The position numbers are program-made. From Nitrospirota bacterium (GTDB taxonomy: Bacteria > Nitrospirota > Nitrospiria > Nitrospirales > Nitrospiraceae): DNA of 64,000 nt. Shown one piece after another: positions 18,001-24,000 of the stretch. The stretch spans positions 192,001 to 256,000 of the forward strand of contig CAVPGK010000017.1 in NCBI GenBank assembly GCA_963703955.1. Direction: 5' to 3'. Each line of letters opens with the position of its first letter. The stretch's first letter is position 1.

Positions 18001-21000
18001 GGGGGCCAGCAAACGATTCAAGCGGACGGGGACGGGTAAGCTGATGAGGCGCAGGGCCGGCAAACGGCACATTTTGACCAGCAAGACCCGCGATCGCAAG
18101 CGGCGACTGGCAGGCACGACCGCCGTCGATTCGACCAGCACGTACGCCGTCAGCCGACAGATGCCGTATCACTCGTCATGACCGCGGTCAGCGGAGGCTG
18201 ACTGCCAACGCAAAGTAAGGAGTCGGAACCATGTCACGCGCAAAGGGCGGTCCCAAGACCAGGCAGCGAAGAAAGAAGCGAATCAAGTTAGCAAAAGGTC
18301 AATACGGCGCAAAGAGCCGGCTGTTCCGATCCGCGACCGAGTCGGTGGACAAAGGGCAAACCTATGCCTATGTCGAGCGCAAGAAGCGGAAGCGGAATTT
18401 TCGCCGTCTGTGGGTCACCCGGATCAGCGCTGCGGTTCGTCAACACGGGCTCACCTATAGCCGGTTCATGAATGCGCTCAGGAAAGCCAACATTCTTCTC
18501 GACCGGAAGGTGCTCTCGGACATGGCGATCAAGGATCCAGGCGGGTTCAATCAACTCACGGAGCTTGCGAAGCAGCACGCTGACTCGTCCGTAGGATAGG
18601 TCTCGAGCGCATGGTCCTATTGCTCAAGGAGTCGGTTCACTGCAAACTCGAAAGCGACGCACGGCATCGCCACCTGCCATTGTTCCAACACTTCCGGGTG
18701 TAACTCGCCGATCACGCCGAGGGGCCGGCCGTCACACAGGATGCGGCCGGCTCGCCCGTCCAGGAACGAGGGATGGGCGAGGGGTTCCAATTCATACAGG
18801 TGTCCCAGATAATGGAAGAGGAGATCCAGGCACGAGTGGACCTCTGAAAAATTTGCCGTCGCGTGCGCAAGCAACACCCCTGCCGACATCACCGTCCGTC
18901 CGCCGAGTTCATGCGTGAGATCCGGAATCACGACCTCCCCCACCTCAAAAAGCCGATGAGGGTAAAAGGCTCGCGTGGAGACTGATTCAATGCGCAGCAA
19001 GGAGGGAAGGATGCCTTGCCTGAGGCAGGCGAAGTTCTGAGACATGACATTATCCACCTCGACCACCCGTTCCCACTCGGTCCCCGGGAGACGCATACGG
19101 TCGACCAGATCAGAGCGAGAGGTGAGGATATTGGAGATCACCTCCTGAAATCCCATTCCGATCAAGAGATCTCTGATGCGATCTGAGACCTGCTCCAGCC
19201 TCGACAGCCCGCCGACGGTAAATTCTGATGGCATGACGGGAACAAAGTCCCCGTATCCCCGGCTGATGGCGACATCCTCCACGACATCCATGGCATGCAT
19301 GACATCGTTTCGATAGGGTGGGAGTTTCACGGTGACCATCTCGCGGGCAAGGGCGACCTCATATCCATAGGTCAGCAAGGCCTGGCGGATCTGATCCGAC
19401 GCCAACGGCTGTCCTAAAGCCGATTCGATCGTCTTCATCGAGATGGTTCGGGACTTTCCGAAGTCGACTGGAGTACGAATCGCGGTCCCGAGGTCGGTCT
19501 GATACGGGTAGACCACCTCGATCGTCTCGATCGACGCCCCCCGGTCCGCCAGATTTACCGCGAGAATATTGAGCGTGAGTAGGACCATGGGCAGGTCCGT
19601 TCCGGTGACCTCCACGAAGAGTTCTCGATCGCCCACTCGGACTTCCCCGATTTCCCGGCTGTTGATAATCGGTGGGAGCGACAGCACCTGACCCTCGTCA
19701 TCCATCAAGAGCGGGACACGTTCATGACCGGCCAAAATGGGTCCGTACTCCAGCCCCTTGGGGTGCACGGACAATATTTCGCGCAAGGACATCTTTTCGT
19801 CGAATCCCAGCGGGGTAAACCGCGCGTCATCGGGCTTCACGAGCGCATAGGTGACGGGGAAGGCGATGGACGGGAGGCGGTACAGACCGATTGAGACCGT
19901 GCGACGCTGCCGTCCAAAAACCTCCGCCAACTTTTCTTGGCCTTGGATGAGCTGCGTCAACCCCGCTTCATTCACTTCATAGCCGACCGCCGAGCAAGCC
20001 GCGACATAGGGCCTGACGCTCTCCAATCCCGGAGAGACAATAAGCCGCCGAGTGGGACGACTCCTTGCATGAAAGAAGGGGTATGGTGACGGGGCGCCCG
20101 TTAACTTGGTGCGGATCTGTCGGGCGATGCCTTCGCAGGACCAGAGATCCGGACGATTGCTGTCCTGCAATTCCACGCGTAACTCATCTGTCTCCTGCTC
20201 ATGATCCTTCAGCTCGCCTTTCACCCAGCACAGCCAGGACTCAATCACCTCAGAAGTCATAGGTTCGGCCGTCGTCGAGCGTTGACCAAGGAGCTGCTCA
20301 AAATCTTTCCGATTAATCGAAATGGTCGGCATTGTCTCTTAGAGTTCTGAGTTCTGAGTTCTGAGGCGTAAGCGAAGACGATCGTTGTTCGACTCTTGAA
20401 TTTGAACTCAGAACTTAGAACTTCCTGGAATTAGAAGCGCCCGCGCATGGTGCGAATCAACTCCAGATCGCTCGAAAACAGATCGCGGATGTCATGAATC
20501 TCCAGGGCAACCATAGCCATGCGGTCCAGCCCCAATCCCCATGCAATCACCGGAACCTCCACGCCGAGCGGCACGGTGACTTCCTGTCTGAATAAGCCCG
20601 CCCCGCCTAGCTCCATCCAGCCCAAGCGGGGATGCCGGACATGCAGCTCGACCGACGGTTCGGTGAACGGGAAATACGCCGGTAAAAACCGACTTTCTTT
20701 GGATTGGGCAACCTCGCGGGCAAAGAGATCGAGCAATCCCAGCAAGGTTCTAAAGTTAATGTCGGGACCTAGCACGATCCCCTCGACCTGAAAGAAATCG
20801 GTGGCGTGGGTTGCGTCCACTTGGTCGTAGCGAAAGCACCGCGCGATCGAAAAATACTTGCCCGGAATCTGCGGCCCTGAGGCCAAGGTGCGGGCTGACA
20901 CGGCCGTCCCCTGGCTGCGGAGGACCAAACGCTTCGCGCGCTCGCGATCGTAGGTGTATCCCCAGCCGGTGGACCCGGTCTTTCCTCCGTTCTGATGAGT

Positions 21001-24000
21001 GTCGGCCACCCTAGACAGAAATGGCTCAGGCGTCTCTCGCGCGTGGGTCGGCTCTTTCACAAAATACACATCATGGATGGCCCTGGCCGGATGGAACTGC
21101 GGCATGTAGAGGCTATCCATATTCCAGAACTCAGTCTCGATCAGCGACCCTCGCATTTCTTGGAAGCCCATACTGACCAACTTGTGCTTCACGAGATCAA
21201 GGAACTCGCGATAGGCATGGCGTCTCCCGATGGCAATACGGGGCGGGCGGAGGCTAATGGTGTATTTGCGAAACCGCTTGGTGCGCCAGGCTCCATCTTT
21301 GAGCAGCTCGGGAGTGAGCTGCGAGACCTCTTCTCCTGCGGTATCTTTTAGAAGACCCTGCGCCACCGTGCCCGCCGCTGTGAGGATATAGGACCGCTCC
21401 GGCCGTTCATCGATGCGGAACGGTTCACGAGGGTTCCCTCGTTTGACGGCATACTGTTTGATGACATCCTGCTGGGCCGGGGAGAAAGAGGCAAGATTTT
21501 TCTTTCTACCGTGGAGCCCAATTAACAGGTTGCGGAGCTCCTTACAGGTTGGACTGTCAGAACCGGTCAGTTCCAAGTATCCGCCAGGTACGACCCGGAC
21601 CGCTCCCTCTTTTTTCAACAATCCGATGGCCGCGCTCACCTCAGGTGGTTCCAGCCCTTCACGGGATTGAATATCCTTGATCGTGAGGCGTTTCCCTGAC
21701 TGTTCCGCCTCCTTCAACGAGGAGAAGATCCGTTCAATCGGCGCATACTTTTCAAAGTAGATCTCGCCGATCTCTGTGAGCGAGACGAGGGCAGTCGCGG
21801 ATTCTTCATGAACGCGAACGAGCCCCTTTGAGAGCAACCATCCGAGGGCCATACTGATCTGTGAGGGCTCAAGTGAGGTGGCCTGGCCGAGATCTTCTTC
21901 TCCCATGGCTGCCGAGGCAGAATCGGCTTGGTGGTCGCCGAGCGTGGAGAGCACTTTGATTTCCAGCGGATGCAGGCTGTCGATCAGGGTGGTAGGATCT
22001 TGCATGCTTACGGCTAACGGCGCCTCGTCACGTGGATTCGACCGGCTTCGCCTTATGCGTTCGCTGCGCGGCCTGCCGCATGGCAGTGATCGTCGCACGG
22101 TAGTCTTGGGTGGTGAAGATAGCAGACCCGGCCACTAGAATATCAGCGCCGGCCTCGATAATTCGTCCAGCATTGTCCACTTTCACACCTCCGTCTACCT
22201 CCAAAACGGCATGGCTGCGTGAGCGGTCGAGAATCTGGCGCGCGCGCATGATTTTTCCGAGGGTCGAGGGGATGAACTGCTGGCCGCCGAAGCCGGGACT
22301 TACGGACATGATAAGGAGAAGGTCCACATCTTCAATGATTTCCTCAATGGCGGTCAACGAGGTGGCGGGGTTCAGCGTCACCCCGGCCTTGACCCCGTGT
22401 TCCTTGATCGCCTGAATGGTCCGATGCAGATGCGGACACGTCTCCACGTGGACGGTCAGATAATCCGCCCCTGCCTCGGCAAATTCCGGAATAAACGCAT
22501 CGGGGTTGGTAATCATGAGATGCACGTCCAAGGGCAACTTCGTGACTTTTCGTAGTGCTTCGACAATAGGGGGCCCCGACCGTGAGATTTGGCACGAAAT
22601 GGCCGTCCATCACGTCGATGTGCAACAGATCGGCGCCTCCCTTTTCCACACAGGCGACCTCTTCGGCAAGCCGCGCAAAATCCGCTGAAAGAATTGACGG
22701 CGCAATCCGAACGTCTGCGCGGGCCATCACGCTGAGACCTTTCGGAGCCGGGCGGCAAAAAACCCATCCATGGAGTAAGGCGAGAACATGGTCGAGAGAT
22801 CTCCCTCAGCGTTCATGAGGGCTTGGCCGGCCGGCGGTAACCACGTGGCAACGGATTCGGGAGAGAATTCCGAGTGTTGCTCAAGAAACTGCGCAACCAC
22901 CTGCTCATTTTCTTCCGGTTCAGTCGAACAAGTACTATAGACTAATACGCCGCCAGGTCGCAAGGCGCGGCTGATCCGATCGAGTAGCCTCATCTGCATA
23001 GCCTGATGTCGCGCCAAGAGATCCTCTGCTTTTTGCCATTTGCCTTCGGGATGTCGGCGAAGGACGCCCAAGCCGCTGCACGGCGCATCCAGCAAAACGC
23101 GATCGAAGGGCACCGCCAGAGCGCTCAGAAGACGCGATGAACGTGATCGATCATCCGTGAACGACGGTATGGCTTGAGCGGCATCGGCTTGCATCGTGGT
23201 CACGATTCGAACGCCAAGCCGTCGGCAATTCTCTTCAAGCAGATGCAGGCGAGCCGCGCGCCGATCCAACGCGATGATTTCGCCACGATTCTGCATCAGC
23301 GCCGCAAGATGGGTAGCCTTTCCGCCGGGGGCGGCGCAAGCATCGAGCACGCGTTCGCCGGGCTGGGGATCAAGGATCGGCGGGACTAACTGTCCGGCCT
23401 CATCCTCGACATAAAACGCGCCTTCGCTGAAGAGCGGAAGCTCTGTCACCAGCCCACGCTTCTCCACGATCAAGCCTGTCGGGCTGACCTGAGTAGGGCA
23501 GGCCTCGCATCCCTCCTTCAGAAATTCCTGGAGCAGACGCTCGCGCGTCACCCGTAAGGTGTTGACTCGAAGTGTGAGAGGGGGGATTGAAGTTGTTGCC
23601 TTGCAGAGCAATTCGGCCCCCTCTGCGCCGAAACGATCGATCCATCGTCCTGACAGCCACTGCGGGCATCCATGTCGGACGGCAAAGGCGAAGGCCGGAT
23701 CGCGGGTCGAGTCCGGCCAGGCCGGAGCTGGCGTAGACCCTAATGCGCGAAGGACTGCATTCACGAACCCGGCCCAGTGTTGCCCAGAGCGTCGTTTGAC
23801 CAAAGAAACGGACTCGTTCACAGCGGCTGAGGCCGGCACGCGGTGCAAATACAGCAATTGGTAGGCGCCGATGCGCAGCGAGGAGCGGACCAGGAAGGGA
23901 AGGCGCTCGATGGACCGATCCGAGACCTGGACCAATCGCCAATCAAGCGTGGATCGATGGCGAAGGACACCATAGACCAGCTCAACGGCCAGCGCTCGAT

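Follow-up and report, generated by a model that had tools for sequence, protein, structure and literature searches.

An archaeal/eukaryotic-type phenylalanyl-tRNA synthetase in Nitrospirota

How did a phenylalanyl-tRNA synthetase (PheRS) of archaeal/eukaryotic type come to stand beside rplT in a Nitrospirota bacterium? The question is raised by two genes in the window, i.e. the whole stretch of 64,000 nt of contig CAVPGK010000017.1 that was analysed, and all coordinates given here are positions in that stretch.

The PheRS subunits

The gene pheS (20431..22005, minus strand) encodes, from an ATG start, an alpha subunit of 524 aa, and pheT (18617..20332, minus strand) encodes a beta subunit of 571 aa. 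In profile searches PheS scored 557 bits against NF003210 (cut-off 350), the match spanning residues 10-521, and it was also above the generic pheS model TIGR00468 (334.5 versus a cut-off of 237.45). PheT scored 477.5 bits against TIGR00471 (pheT_arch, cut-off 282.65) and 111.4 bits against TIGR00472 (pheT_bact), below the cut-off of 402.65. PheT comprises B1, the editing region, B5 and CLM, of which Pfam shows B1, B5 and CLM; neither tRNA_bind (B2) nor FDX-ACB (B8) was found in it, both being detected in the control L111. The source genome, which is 82% complete, contained no FDX-ACB match anywhere, one PF01409 match only and no TIGR00472 match above cut-off. In bacterial-type PheRS the beta subunit is about 690-800 aa long and includes FDX-ACB, and the alpha subunit is about 340 aa; this pair has neither. 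Profiles, domains and fold thus confirm that the two genes encode archaeal/eukaryotic-type PheRS subunits, the sole PheRS found in this genome. The first-pass annotation had described them in the same way, including the absence of the bacterial tRNA-binding and anticodon domains from the beta subunit.

PheS carries an N-terminal extension of approximately 220 residues that is winged-helix-like, with PF01409 and weak winged-helix matches in Pfam. Alignments show the Phe pocket and class II motifs 1-3 to be intact. The AF2 model of PheS has a pLDDT of 80 overall and 83-94 across residues 11-220. Its top Foldseek match, along 524 columns, was 3l4g_C, the alpha chain of the human cytosolic enzyme, with a TM-score of only 0.36 because the domain arrangement differs. 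In the amino-acid pocket the sequence is YFPF, which the three aligned archaea share, whereas the human chain has YNPY. The top PDB matches of PheT were 2cxi, 8s8b and 3l4g, and its editing-site stretch aligns to 2cxi. Hence the pair shares with archaeal/eukaryotic cytosolic PheRS (2cxi, 3l4g, 8s8b) the domain set, the long winged-helix N-terminus of alpha and the lack of B2 and B8.

The intact motifs and the single copy suggest that the pair is the working (alpha-beta)2 PheRS of the cell, and family membership together with sole-copy status predicts a tetramer able to charge tRNA-Phe and to edit Tyr-tRNA-Phe. The alpha chain would activate Phe, and its N-terminal winged-helix domains, rather than B8, would hold the tRNA, while the beta chain, judging from its family, would retain the editing site.

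The locus and its gene order

At lower coordinates than the pair, on the plus strand, lie thrS, infC and rpmI (15264..18181), followed by rplT (L20; TIGR01032; 18231..18599, plus strand), the end gene of thrS-infC-rpmI-rplT. In bacterial-type Nitrospirota this operon continues into pheS-pheT. In the window pheT stands tail to tail with rplT on the opposite strand, 17 bases from the rplT stop. Upstream of pheS-pheT, and co-directional with it, is fmt-rsmB-rpe (22028..25137, minus strand), the gap between rpe and pheS being 22 bases, and fmt-rsmB-rpe and pheS-pheT are probably on one transcript. A 19-nt inverted repeat made of a 7-base unit occupies the pheS-pheT spacer (20343..20422) and has no bearing on the interpretation, and promoter and terminator scans at the locus gave matches at chance level. 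The GC content of pheS-pheT (0.565-0.583) is the same as that of the flanks. The neighbouring rpe contains a frameshift.

Of the Nitrospirales-type loci in which rplT could be seen, 71 of 71 keep the layout facing it, some of them on megabase contigs, which bears out the earlier claim that the pair is at its usual site after thrS-infC-rpmI-rplT but in flipped orientation. Most Nitrospiria loci, like family f8, also have the fmt-rsmB-rpe block beside pheS-pheT, and family f13 keeps the site facing rplT. The canonical order rplT-pheS-pheT was seen in 14 of 20 bacterial-type loci, and in families f10 and f11. Compared with bacterial PheRS and its thrS-infC-rpmI-rplT-pheS-pheT operon, the Nitrospirota pair has the same reaction, the same chromosomal neighbourhood and an alpha subunit that still passes TIGR00468, but it lacks B2 and B8, is on the opposite strand and is probably transcribed with fmt-rsmB-rpe. 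A common downstream transporter block was considered as proof of an inversion in place and was rejected, the blocks of families f19 and f12 being different LolCE-like and MacB-like systems.

Distribution, relatives and tRNA-Phe

TIGR00471 was above cut-off in 162 of 251 Nitrospirota genomes, among them 61 of 61 from the window's own class. Of 72 further Nitrospiria 61 were above cut-off; the remaining 11 comprised five without a match (52-87% complete) and six with pieces below cut-off. The statement that all sampled Nitrospiria and two thirds of Nitrospirota carry this form was thereby reproduced on a larger draw. The carriers in the 251-genome draw are nine families, Leptospirillia-like ones included, so that the trait is wider than Nitrospiria. 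FDX-ACB was detected in every one of the 77 genomes from 17 bacterial-type families and in none of the 173 from the nine archaeal-type families. None of the 251 genomes contained both forms, and none among 44 was above both the TIGR00471 and the TIGR00472 cut-off. One apparent double carrier (G319) was rejected: it contains a foreign contig (8% contamination) whose ThrS is 43% identical to that of the window, versus 62% at G319's own locus. A single record labelled Nitrospinota, a group the first-pass annotation had listed among the matches, resembled Nitrospirales in its PheT, its synteny and its RpoB, the last being 87% identical to that of a Nitrospirales genome; the sample included no true Nitrospinota.

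In the RpoBC tree eight carrier families are set apart from the rest with a support of 99-100, and the ninth, f9, falls on the other side, surrounded by bacterial-type families, which requires two or more changes. Placing all carriers on one side was rejected in the tree without outgroups (p-AU 0.034), and all carriers as one clade were not rejected with outgroups (p 0.09). The PheRS of f9 nests among those of the other carriers (88/98), and its exclusion was rejected (p-AU 0.014). The proposal that the archaeal type has replaced the bacterial enzyme in Nitrospiria therefore holds for the replacement but not for the restriction to Nitrospiria, the change being older and wider. Distribution, mutual exclusion and the RpoBC tree likewise support the view that pheS and pheT are discordant markers within the phylum. 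Generic pheS and bacterial pheT models are standard bacterial markers; the pair misleads marker sets in Nitrospirota because the archaeal-type alpha passes the former while beta fails the latter.

In a PheT tree rooted on bacterial-type PheT, the Nitrospirota proteins form a clade of 35 rows (SH-aLRT 97) with proteins named Planctomycetota, Moduliflexus, Armatimonadetes, WOR-3 and Treponema, nested among archaeal-type sequences; these phylum names are MAG labels. In a mixture-model tree of 42 rows, the result of a quick search, 10 archaeal-side rows separate at 99. The deep PheT trees are all quick searches with SH-aLRT only, and names are attached to four archaeal-side rows and to a minority of all rows. 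Among named archaea an Aenigmarchaeota protein is the closest; none of the archaeal-side rows was identified as Thermococcales (best 358 bits to 2cxi, five candidates tried). PheS is 49-52% identical to bacterial carriers of other phyla versus 37-41% to three named archaea, and for PheT the values are 46-47% versus 35-38%. The only named outside matches had earlier been given as archaea at 35-37%; these comparisons place named bacteria of other phyla nearer, and the closest relatives of the pair appear to be other bacteria, not archaea. No archaeal-type PheT was found among 18 plasmid matches or in viral contigs.

Archaeal-type PheRS has been described in Spirochaeta, Borrelia and Treponema, whereas Leptospira and Brachyspira keep the bacterial form (Andam and Gogarten 2011, PMC3191353). 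The swap is thus already known from spirochaetes, and Nitrospirota are a further case; no published statement of it was found in a literature search, and "nitrospir" has 0 matches in the main text of PMC3191353. In both cases the two subunits were exchanged together, with equal sizes, relatives in the phylum (here 17 families) keep the bacterial form, and the proteins share one broad PheT clade. The Nitrospirota case differs in lying in another phylum, in not being a clean shared-derived character (at least two changes), in having other bacteria as nearest relatives and in having Aenigmarchaeota, not Thermococcales, as the nearest named archaeon. Most Nitrospirota carriers are not known to be thermophiles, and the heat-stability argument of the spirochaete case therefore does not carry over.

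The enzyme also differs from its archaeal and eukaryotic cytosolic counterparts in its partner. Position 20 of tRNA-Phe is U or C in Nitrospirota genomes, and the tRNA that the enzyme serves has A37, whereas G20 is a tRNA-Phe determinant in yeast and Aeropyrum (PMC9976931). G20 was present in 0 of 57 tRNA-Phe genes, 0 of 130, and 0 of 30 non-U matches, counts made with a pattern that missed the two archaeal genomes tried and so has no G20 positive control. The archaeal/yeast determinant was never acquired by Nitrospirota tRNA-Phe, which is a new observation. C20 occurred only in archaeal-type genomes (30 of 173 versus 0 of 77 bacterial-type) and clusters by kinship, so the figure is not a count of independent events. 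The genomes suggest that the enzyme accepts tRNA with either U20 or C20 and can do without G20. Co-transfer of the tRNA, or its co-adaptation to G20, was rejected, G20 being absent from all counts. G20 is a trait of the tRNA partner in two organisms, not of the PheRS protein family.

Possible history of the replacement

As a whole, we consider an ancient xenologous displacement through a bacterial pool the best explanation, with somewhat better than even chances. Archaeal PheRS would have entered bacteria once, and the two genes would then have travelled together from one bacterial phylum to another. From this pool a pair may have reached an early Nitrospirota ancestor, before the split of Nitrospiria and the Leptospirillia-like lineages. 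The incoming pair would have settled opposite rplT, downstream of fmt-rsmB-rpe, with loss of the bacterial pair. A second step, a transfer inside the phylum, would have brought these genes to family f9, and the host tRNA-Phe would not have been exchanged.

A serious but less probable competitor dates the archaeal-type pair back to the last common ancestor of the phylum. Both forms would then have been present in the stem of the Thermodesulfovibrionia-like half, the bacterial pair being kept or regained behind rplT, and differential loss would have left f9 with a vertically inherited copy; a layout in which bacterial rplT-pheS-pheT faced archaeal-type pheT-pheS would give both present layouts by deletion alone. 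Rooting the RpoBC tree with distant outgroups places the root at f8/f13, within the carriers, and the PheS+PheT tree rooted on other bacteria likewise puts f8 and f13 outside the group holding f9. The site facing rplT in f13 and the fmt-rsmB-rpe block in f8 agree with this, as does the bacterial-type PheT of the other half, which as one clade was not rejected (p 0.59). A reacquisition of the f6 PheT from Desulfobacterota was neither supported nor rejected. The f8/f13 root tells against the displacement scenario, and a published tree also sets Leptospirillia apart from two other clusters (PMC11033732). However, no genome of 251 has both forms. The scenario would require as many as four independent losses of the archaeal form, and f9 would have to have lost the bacterial one; the branches of f8 and f13 are long in both trees, and a root between the two halves was not rejected (p 0.36). 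An archaea-rooted PheS+PheT tree of 36 rows left the families unresolved, with the long f13 row drawn to the root.

The donor had been left open by the first-pass annotation for want of a tree. The PheT trees now place bacterial rows nearest, but AU tests on PheT do not settle the donor: Nitrospirota with archaea (p 0.198), Nitrospirota with spirochaetes (p 0.159) and a separate spirochaete origin (p 0.499) were none of them rejected, even though Nitrospirota and spirochaete PheT share a clade without archaea at SH-aLRT 97-99. Nitrospirota with the Planctomycetota group had a support of 51 in the tree tested, which, like these tests, speaks against the bacterial-pool scenario. Direct uptake from an archaeon, independent of the spirochaete and other bacterial cases, is compatible with the first of these tests (made with the 10 archaeal-side rows) and with the three named archaea at 35-37% in the genome scan. 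It is nevertheless unlikely, as bacterial-named rows stand between Nitrospirota and archaea in every PheT tree and identity to bacterial carriers is about 10 points higher. Spirochaetes as direct donor, which would fit the common size class (alpha 513-528, beta 514-573 aa, PMC3191353), the shared broad clade and the second test, seem more improbable still: their rows form a branch of their own (98-99), and Planctomycetota, Moduliflexus and Armatimonadetes rows are nearer to Nitrospirota in three PheT trees. An archaeal contig in a bacterial bin, which the 82% completeness and the frameshift in the adjoining rpe might bring to mind, is refuted by synteny and has a negligible probability, the genes being contiguous with bacterial thrS, infC, rplT, fmt and rsmB in a layout shared by all 71 related loci.

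A wider reading can be put forward tentatively, all its parts together being rather doubtful. One ancient bacterial lineage of archaeal-type PheRS, with spirochaetes as its visible tip, may go back to a single uptake from a DPANN-related archaeon and have circulated since then in six phyla or more (Nitrospirota, Planctomycetota, Moduliflexota, Armatimonadota, WOR-3 and Spirochaetota). It would have spread through loss of G20 dependence, and so by charging unmodified bacterial tRNA-Phe. In Nitrospirota it would be older than the last common ancestor of the phylum and would have existed alongside the bacterial enzyme behind rplT until reciprocal loss sorted the two forms, after which position 20 would have been free to drift to C.

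The Nitrospirota case adds a second instance to the textbook example of a core translation enzyme replaced across domains, and it suggests that spirochaetes are perhaps one branch of a larger bacterial pool. Archaeal-type PheRS has been described as orthogonal to bacterial tRNA (PMC3275996), and the carriers offer a natural test of how such an enzyme crossed that barrier without a change in the tRNA. Among them are the main nitrite oxidisers and comammox bacteria, and the source organism of the window is a relative of nitrite oxidisers.

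The phenylalanyl-tRNA synthetase of the window

The plus-strand genes thrS-infC-rpmI-rplT of the window, identified by profile matches, are faced by a minus-strand block fmt-rsmB-rpe-pheS-pheT, with pheT (18617-20332) directed towards rplT (18231-18599); the opposite orientation of the pair described in the first-pass annotation was thus confirmed. PheS (20431-22005) comprises 524 aa from the ATG at 22005 and matches NF003210 with 557 bits (cut-off 350). The 571 aa PheT scores 477.5 bits against the archaeal profile TIGR00471 (cut-off 282.65) and 111 against the bacterial TIGR00472 (cut-off 402.65), and has neither the tRNA_bind nor the FDX-ACB domain, both of which are present in a bacterial-type control. 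Archaeal and eukaryotic chains, among them 2cxi from Pyrococcus horikoshii, are the top PDB sequence matches. For an alignment-based model of PheS (pLDDT 80) the top Foldseek match is the human cytosolic alpha chain; the alignment spans 524 columns, but the TM-score is low (0.36). The GC content of pheS-pheT is in line with that of the flanks. The genome, which is 82% complete, contains a single PF01409 match and no bacterial PheT was found in it, supporting the earlier claim that this is its only PheRS.

The pheS-pheT spacer, whose length differs between relatives, contains an inverted repeat built from two to three copies of a 7-base unit (20343-20422). A frameshift in a G/C run (22569-22577) of the minus-strand rpe (22028-22730), a single ORF of about 220-235 aa in relatives, is probably an assembly error. 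Beyond tRNA-Met, at 25228-30000, the GC content drops to about 0.50; this region, which includes a fragment of a recombinase zinc-ribbon domain (27813-28469), is likely a decayed integrated element.

Distribution and gene order in Nitrospirota

The TIGR00471 cut-off was passed in 162 of 251 genomes of the phylum, in line with the proposed two thirds. The bacterial anticodon domain is present in all 77 genomes of 17 coded families and in none of the 173 genomes of nine others (f1-f5, f8, f9, f12 and f13); the single genome of f17 (77% complete) has neither form, and the best TIGR00471 match among the 77 is no better than 5e-42. The claim that all sampled Nitrospiria carry the archaeal type held for the 61 of 61 genomes in this draw; of 72 further Nitrospiria genomes from 16 families, 61 passed, six had pieces and five incomplete genomes gave no match. 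The replacement is real, ancient and phylum-wide. We infer the class names of the coded families: a protein named Leptospirillia clusters with f8, f13 shares a long branch with f8 in two RpoB+RpoC trees, two named records cluster with f12, and f7, f14-f16 and f18-f27 form one clade, taken as Thermodesulfovibrionia.

Two candidates were dismissed. The lone record labelled Nitrospinota is Nitrospirales-like, its RpoB being 87% identical to that of f2. A Nitrospiria bin (G319) appeared to hold both forms, with a second, foreign operon thrS-infC-rplT-pheS-pheT (contig L320) encoding a short bacterial-type PheT. Since ThrS, IF3 and L20 of that operon are 42-43% identical to those of the window, against 51-63% at the bin's own archaeal-type locus, we read it as contamination. 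One named assembly with two archaeal-type pheS-pheT-rplT loci on different contigs (L067, L068) is probably a mixed bin, and many records filed as plasmids in the plasmid collection are whole chromosomes with rpoB and pheT.

The inverted position is conserved as previously stated: pheT faces rplT within 400 bases in all 71 of 77 Nitrospirota-type loci with rplT in view, the remaining six either stopping too early (four) or having other genes there (two). The same layout occurs in 10 of 14 loci of the further Nitrospiria families, excluding the contaminant. Among 20 loci from f3, f4, f5, f8, f9, f12 and f13 it is seen in 8, with at most three genes in between. Family f8 retains fmt-rsmB-rpe-pheS-pheT apart from rplT, and in f9 the pair is located elsewhere. 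Co-directional rplT-pheS-pheT was found in 14 of 20 bacterial-type loci and likewise in f10 and f11; f6 lacks this order. In f6 (L111-L113) pheS and pheT are remote from rplT and have between them a conserved ORF of 153 aa that belongs to no Pfam or NCBIfam family, and the closest named PheT outside the family is from Desulfobacterota (about 50%). In f10 a nucleotidyltransferase-domain gene separates pheS and pheT (L316:8039-8539). PheT of f6 and f10 has the full 800 aa; that of f11 and the Thermodesulfovibrionia-like families (L115-L130, L312) has about 685, missing the B2 OB domain and keeping B8.

Origin of the archaeal-type enzyme

Archaea had been the only named matches outside Nitrospirota and Nitrospinota in the first reading. 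Bacterial-named rows are closer: the best 150 representatives at 50% identity include about 30 clusters that are 43-53% identical, above the 35-37% of the three named archaea. Around one of these clusters, the names among 120 rows were Planctomycetota/Planctomycetes (in five rows), Candidatus Moduliflexus flocculans and Armatimonadetes; around a second, also among 120 rows, they were Treponema, Breznakiella, Leadbettera and Spirochaetia. WOR-3, an unclassified bacterium and one archaeon of the Aenigmarchaeota came from cluster look-ups.

Named rows are a minority in the PheT trees, and spirochaetes are represented by PheT alone. A 114-row tree unites the Nitrospirota in a group of 34 rows (97), next to a group of 22 that contains Planctomycetota and Moduliflexus (98), with the named archaea in a separate 26-row group (99); a quick-search 42-row mixture tree concurs. 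In a 100-row tree rooted on ten bacterial-type PheT, for which alternate representatives were taken from rank 40 onwards, every bacterial-named row fell in a single clade of 35 rows (97). This clade lies within the archaeal-type rows, and the closest named row outside it is the Aenigmarchaeota-linked P0038. AU tests on PheT did not reject Nitrospirota with archaea (p 0.198), Nitrospirota with spirochaetes (p 0.159) or spirochaetes with archaea (p 0.499). The PheS motif 2 region (window residues ~390-408) reads D-F-(F/Y/L)-Q in Nitrospirota and other aligned bacterial carriers and E-F-N-Q in the two archaea shown, a difference that may mark the bacterial pool.

Wolf and Woese reportedly treated the spirochaete case in earlier papers. 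Such proteins are already labelled automatically by profile libraries, and a search at listing level found no published statement of the Nitrospirota case, although supplements may contain gene trees with these taxa. Two testable additions go beyond the first reading: a proposed single bacterial pool shared by several phyla, and the unchanged tRNA. The archaeal-type PheRS of spirochaetes has been published, with Thermococcales as proposed donors (PMC3191353); no Thermococcales protein was identified among the sampled PheT rows.

In an RpoB+RpoC tree of 41 genomes eight carrier families are set apart from all others with support 100, and f9 stands next to the bacterial-type f6 and f11, requiring at least two changes. 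Placing all carriers on one side was rejected without outgroups (p-AU 0.034, 20 of 41 rows) and not rejected with them (p 0.09). When five or six distant outgroups are added, the tree is rooted at f8/f13; a root between the two halves was not rejected (p 0.36). The published trees differ in emphasis, terming Thermodesulfovibrionia, RBG-16-64-22 and UBA9217 early-branching (PMC10203281), or giving three clusters: Leptospirillia; Thermodesulfovibrionia with RBG-16-64-22 and UBA9217; and 9FT-COMBO-42-15 with Nitrospiria (PMC11033732). A mixture tree of PheS+PheT with 20 rows was rooted on four loci from other bacteria; in it f9 groups with f1-f5 and f12 (88/98), f8 and f13 lying outside, and uniting the eight carrier families without f9 was rejected (p 0.014). 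This position is compatible with a second transfer into f9, towards which we lean slightly, or with vertical inheritance since the phylum's root, which we consider somewhat less likely. RpoB of f13 (L166-L168) has 1724-1730 aa, about 400 residues beyond that of other families.

Position 20 of tRNA-Phe

Archaeal/eukaryotic and bacterial PheRS-tRNA pairs are described as not cross-reacting in one review (PMC3275996). Another (PMC9976931, Table 1) names G20 as a determinant for yeast and Aeropyrum pernix, and U20 for E. coli. The single tRNA-Phe of the window's genome has C20. Of 61 genomes searched with a tRNA-Phe pattern, 57 gave a match (30 of archaeal type, 26 of bacterial type and one unknown); two Nitrospirota and both archaea were missed, and one chance extra match was excluded. 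U20 was found in 53 and C20 in four of these 57, and G20 in none, both archaeal genomes being unmatched. With unassembled tRNAs scored as negative and related genomes not independent, a non-U20 pattern, always C, occurred in 30 of 173 archaeal-type against 0 of 77 bacterial-type genomes, and in 129 of 301 Nitrospiria (128 of 300 without genome G476, which carries an unpublished flag). From these sequences, the archaeal-type enzyme would charge a bacterial tRNA without G20, and position 20 may have been freed from the U constraint. Because C20 is scattered over seven families (f1, f2, f9, f28, f29, f34 and f42), its distribution suggests that it arose repeatedly.
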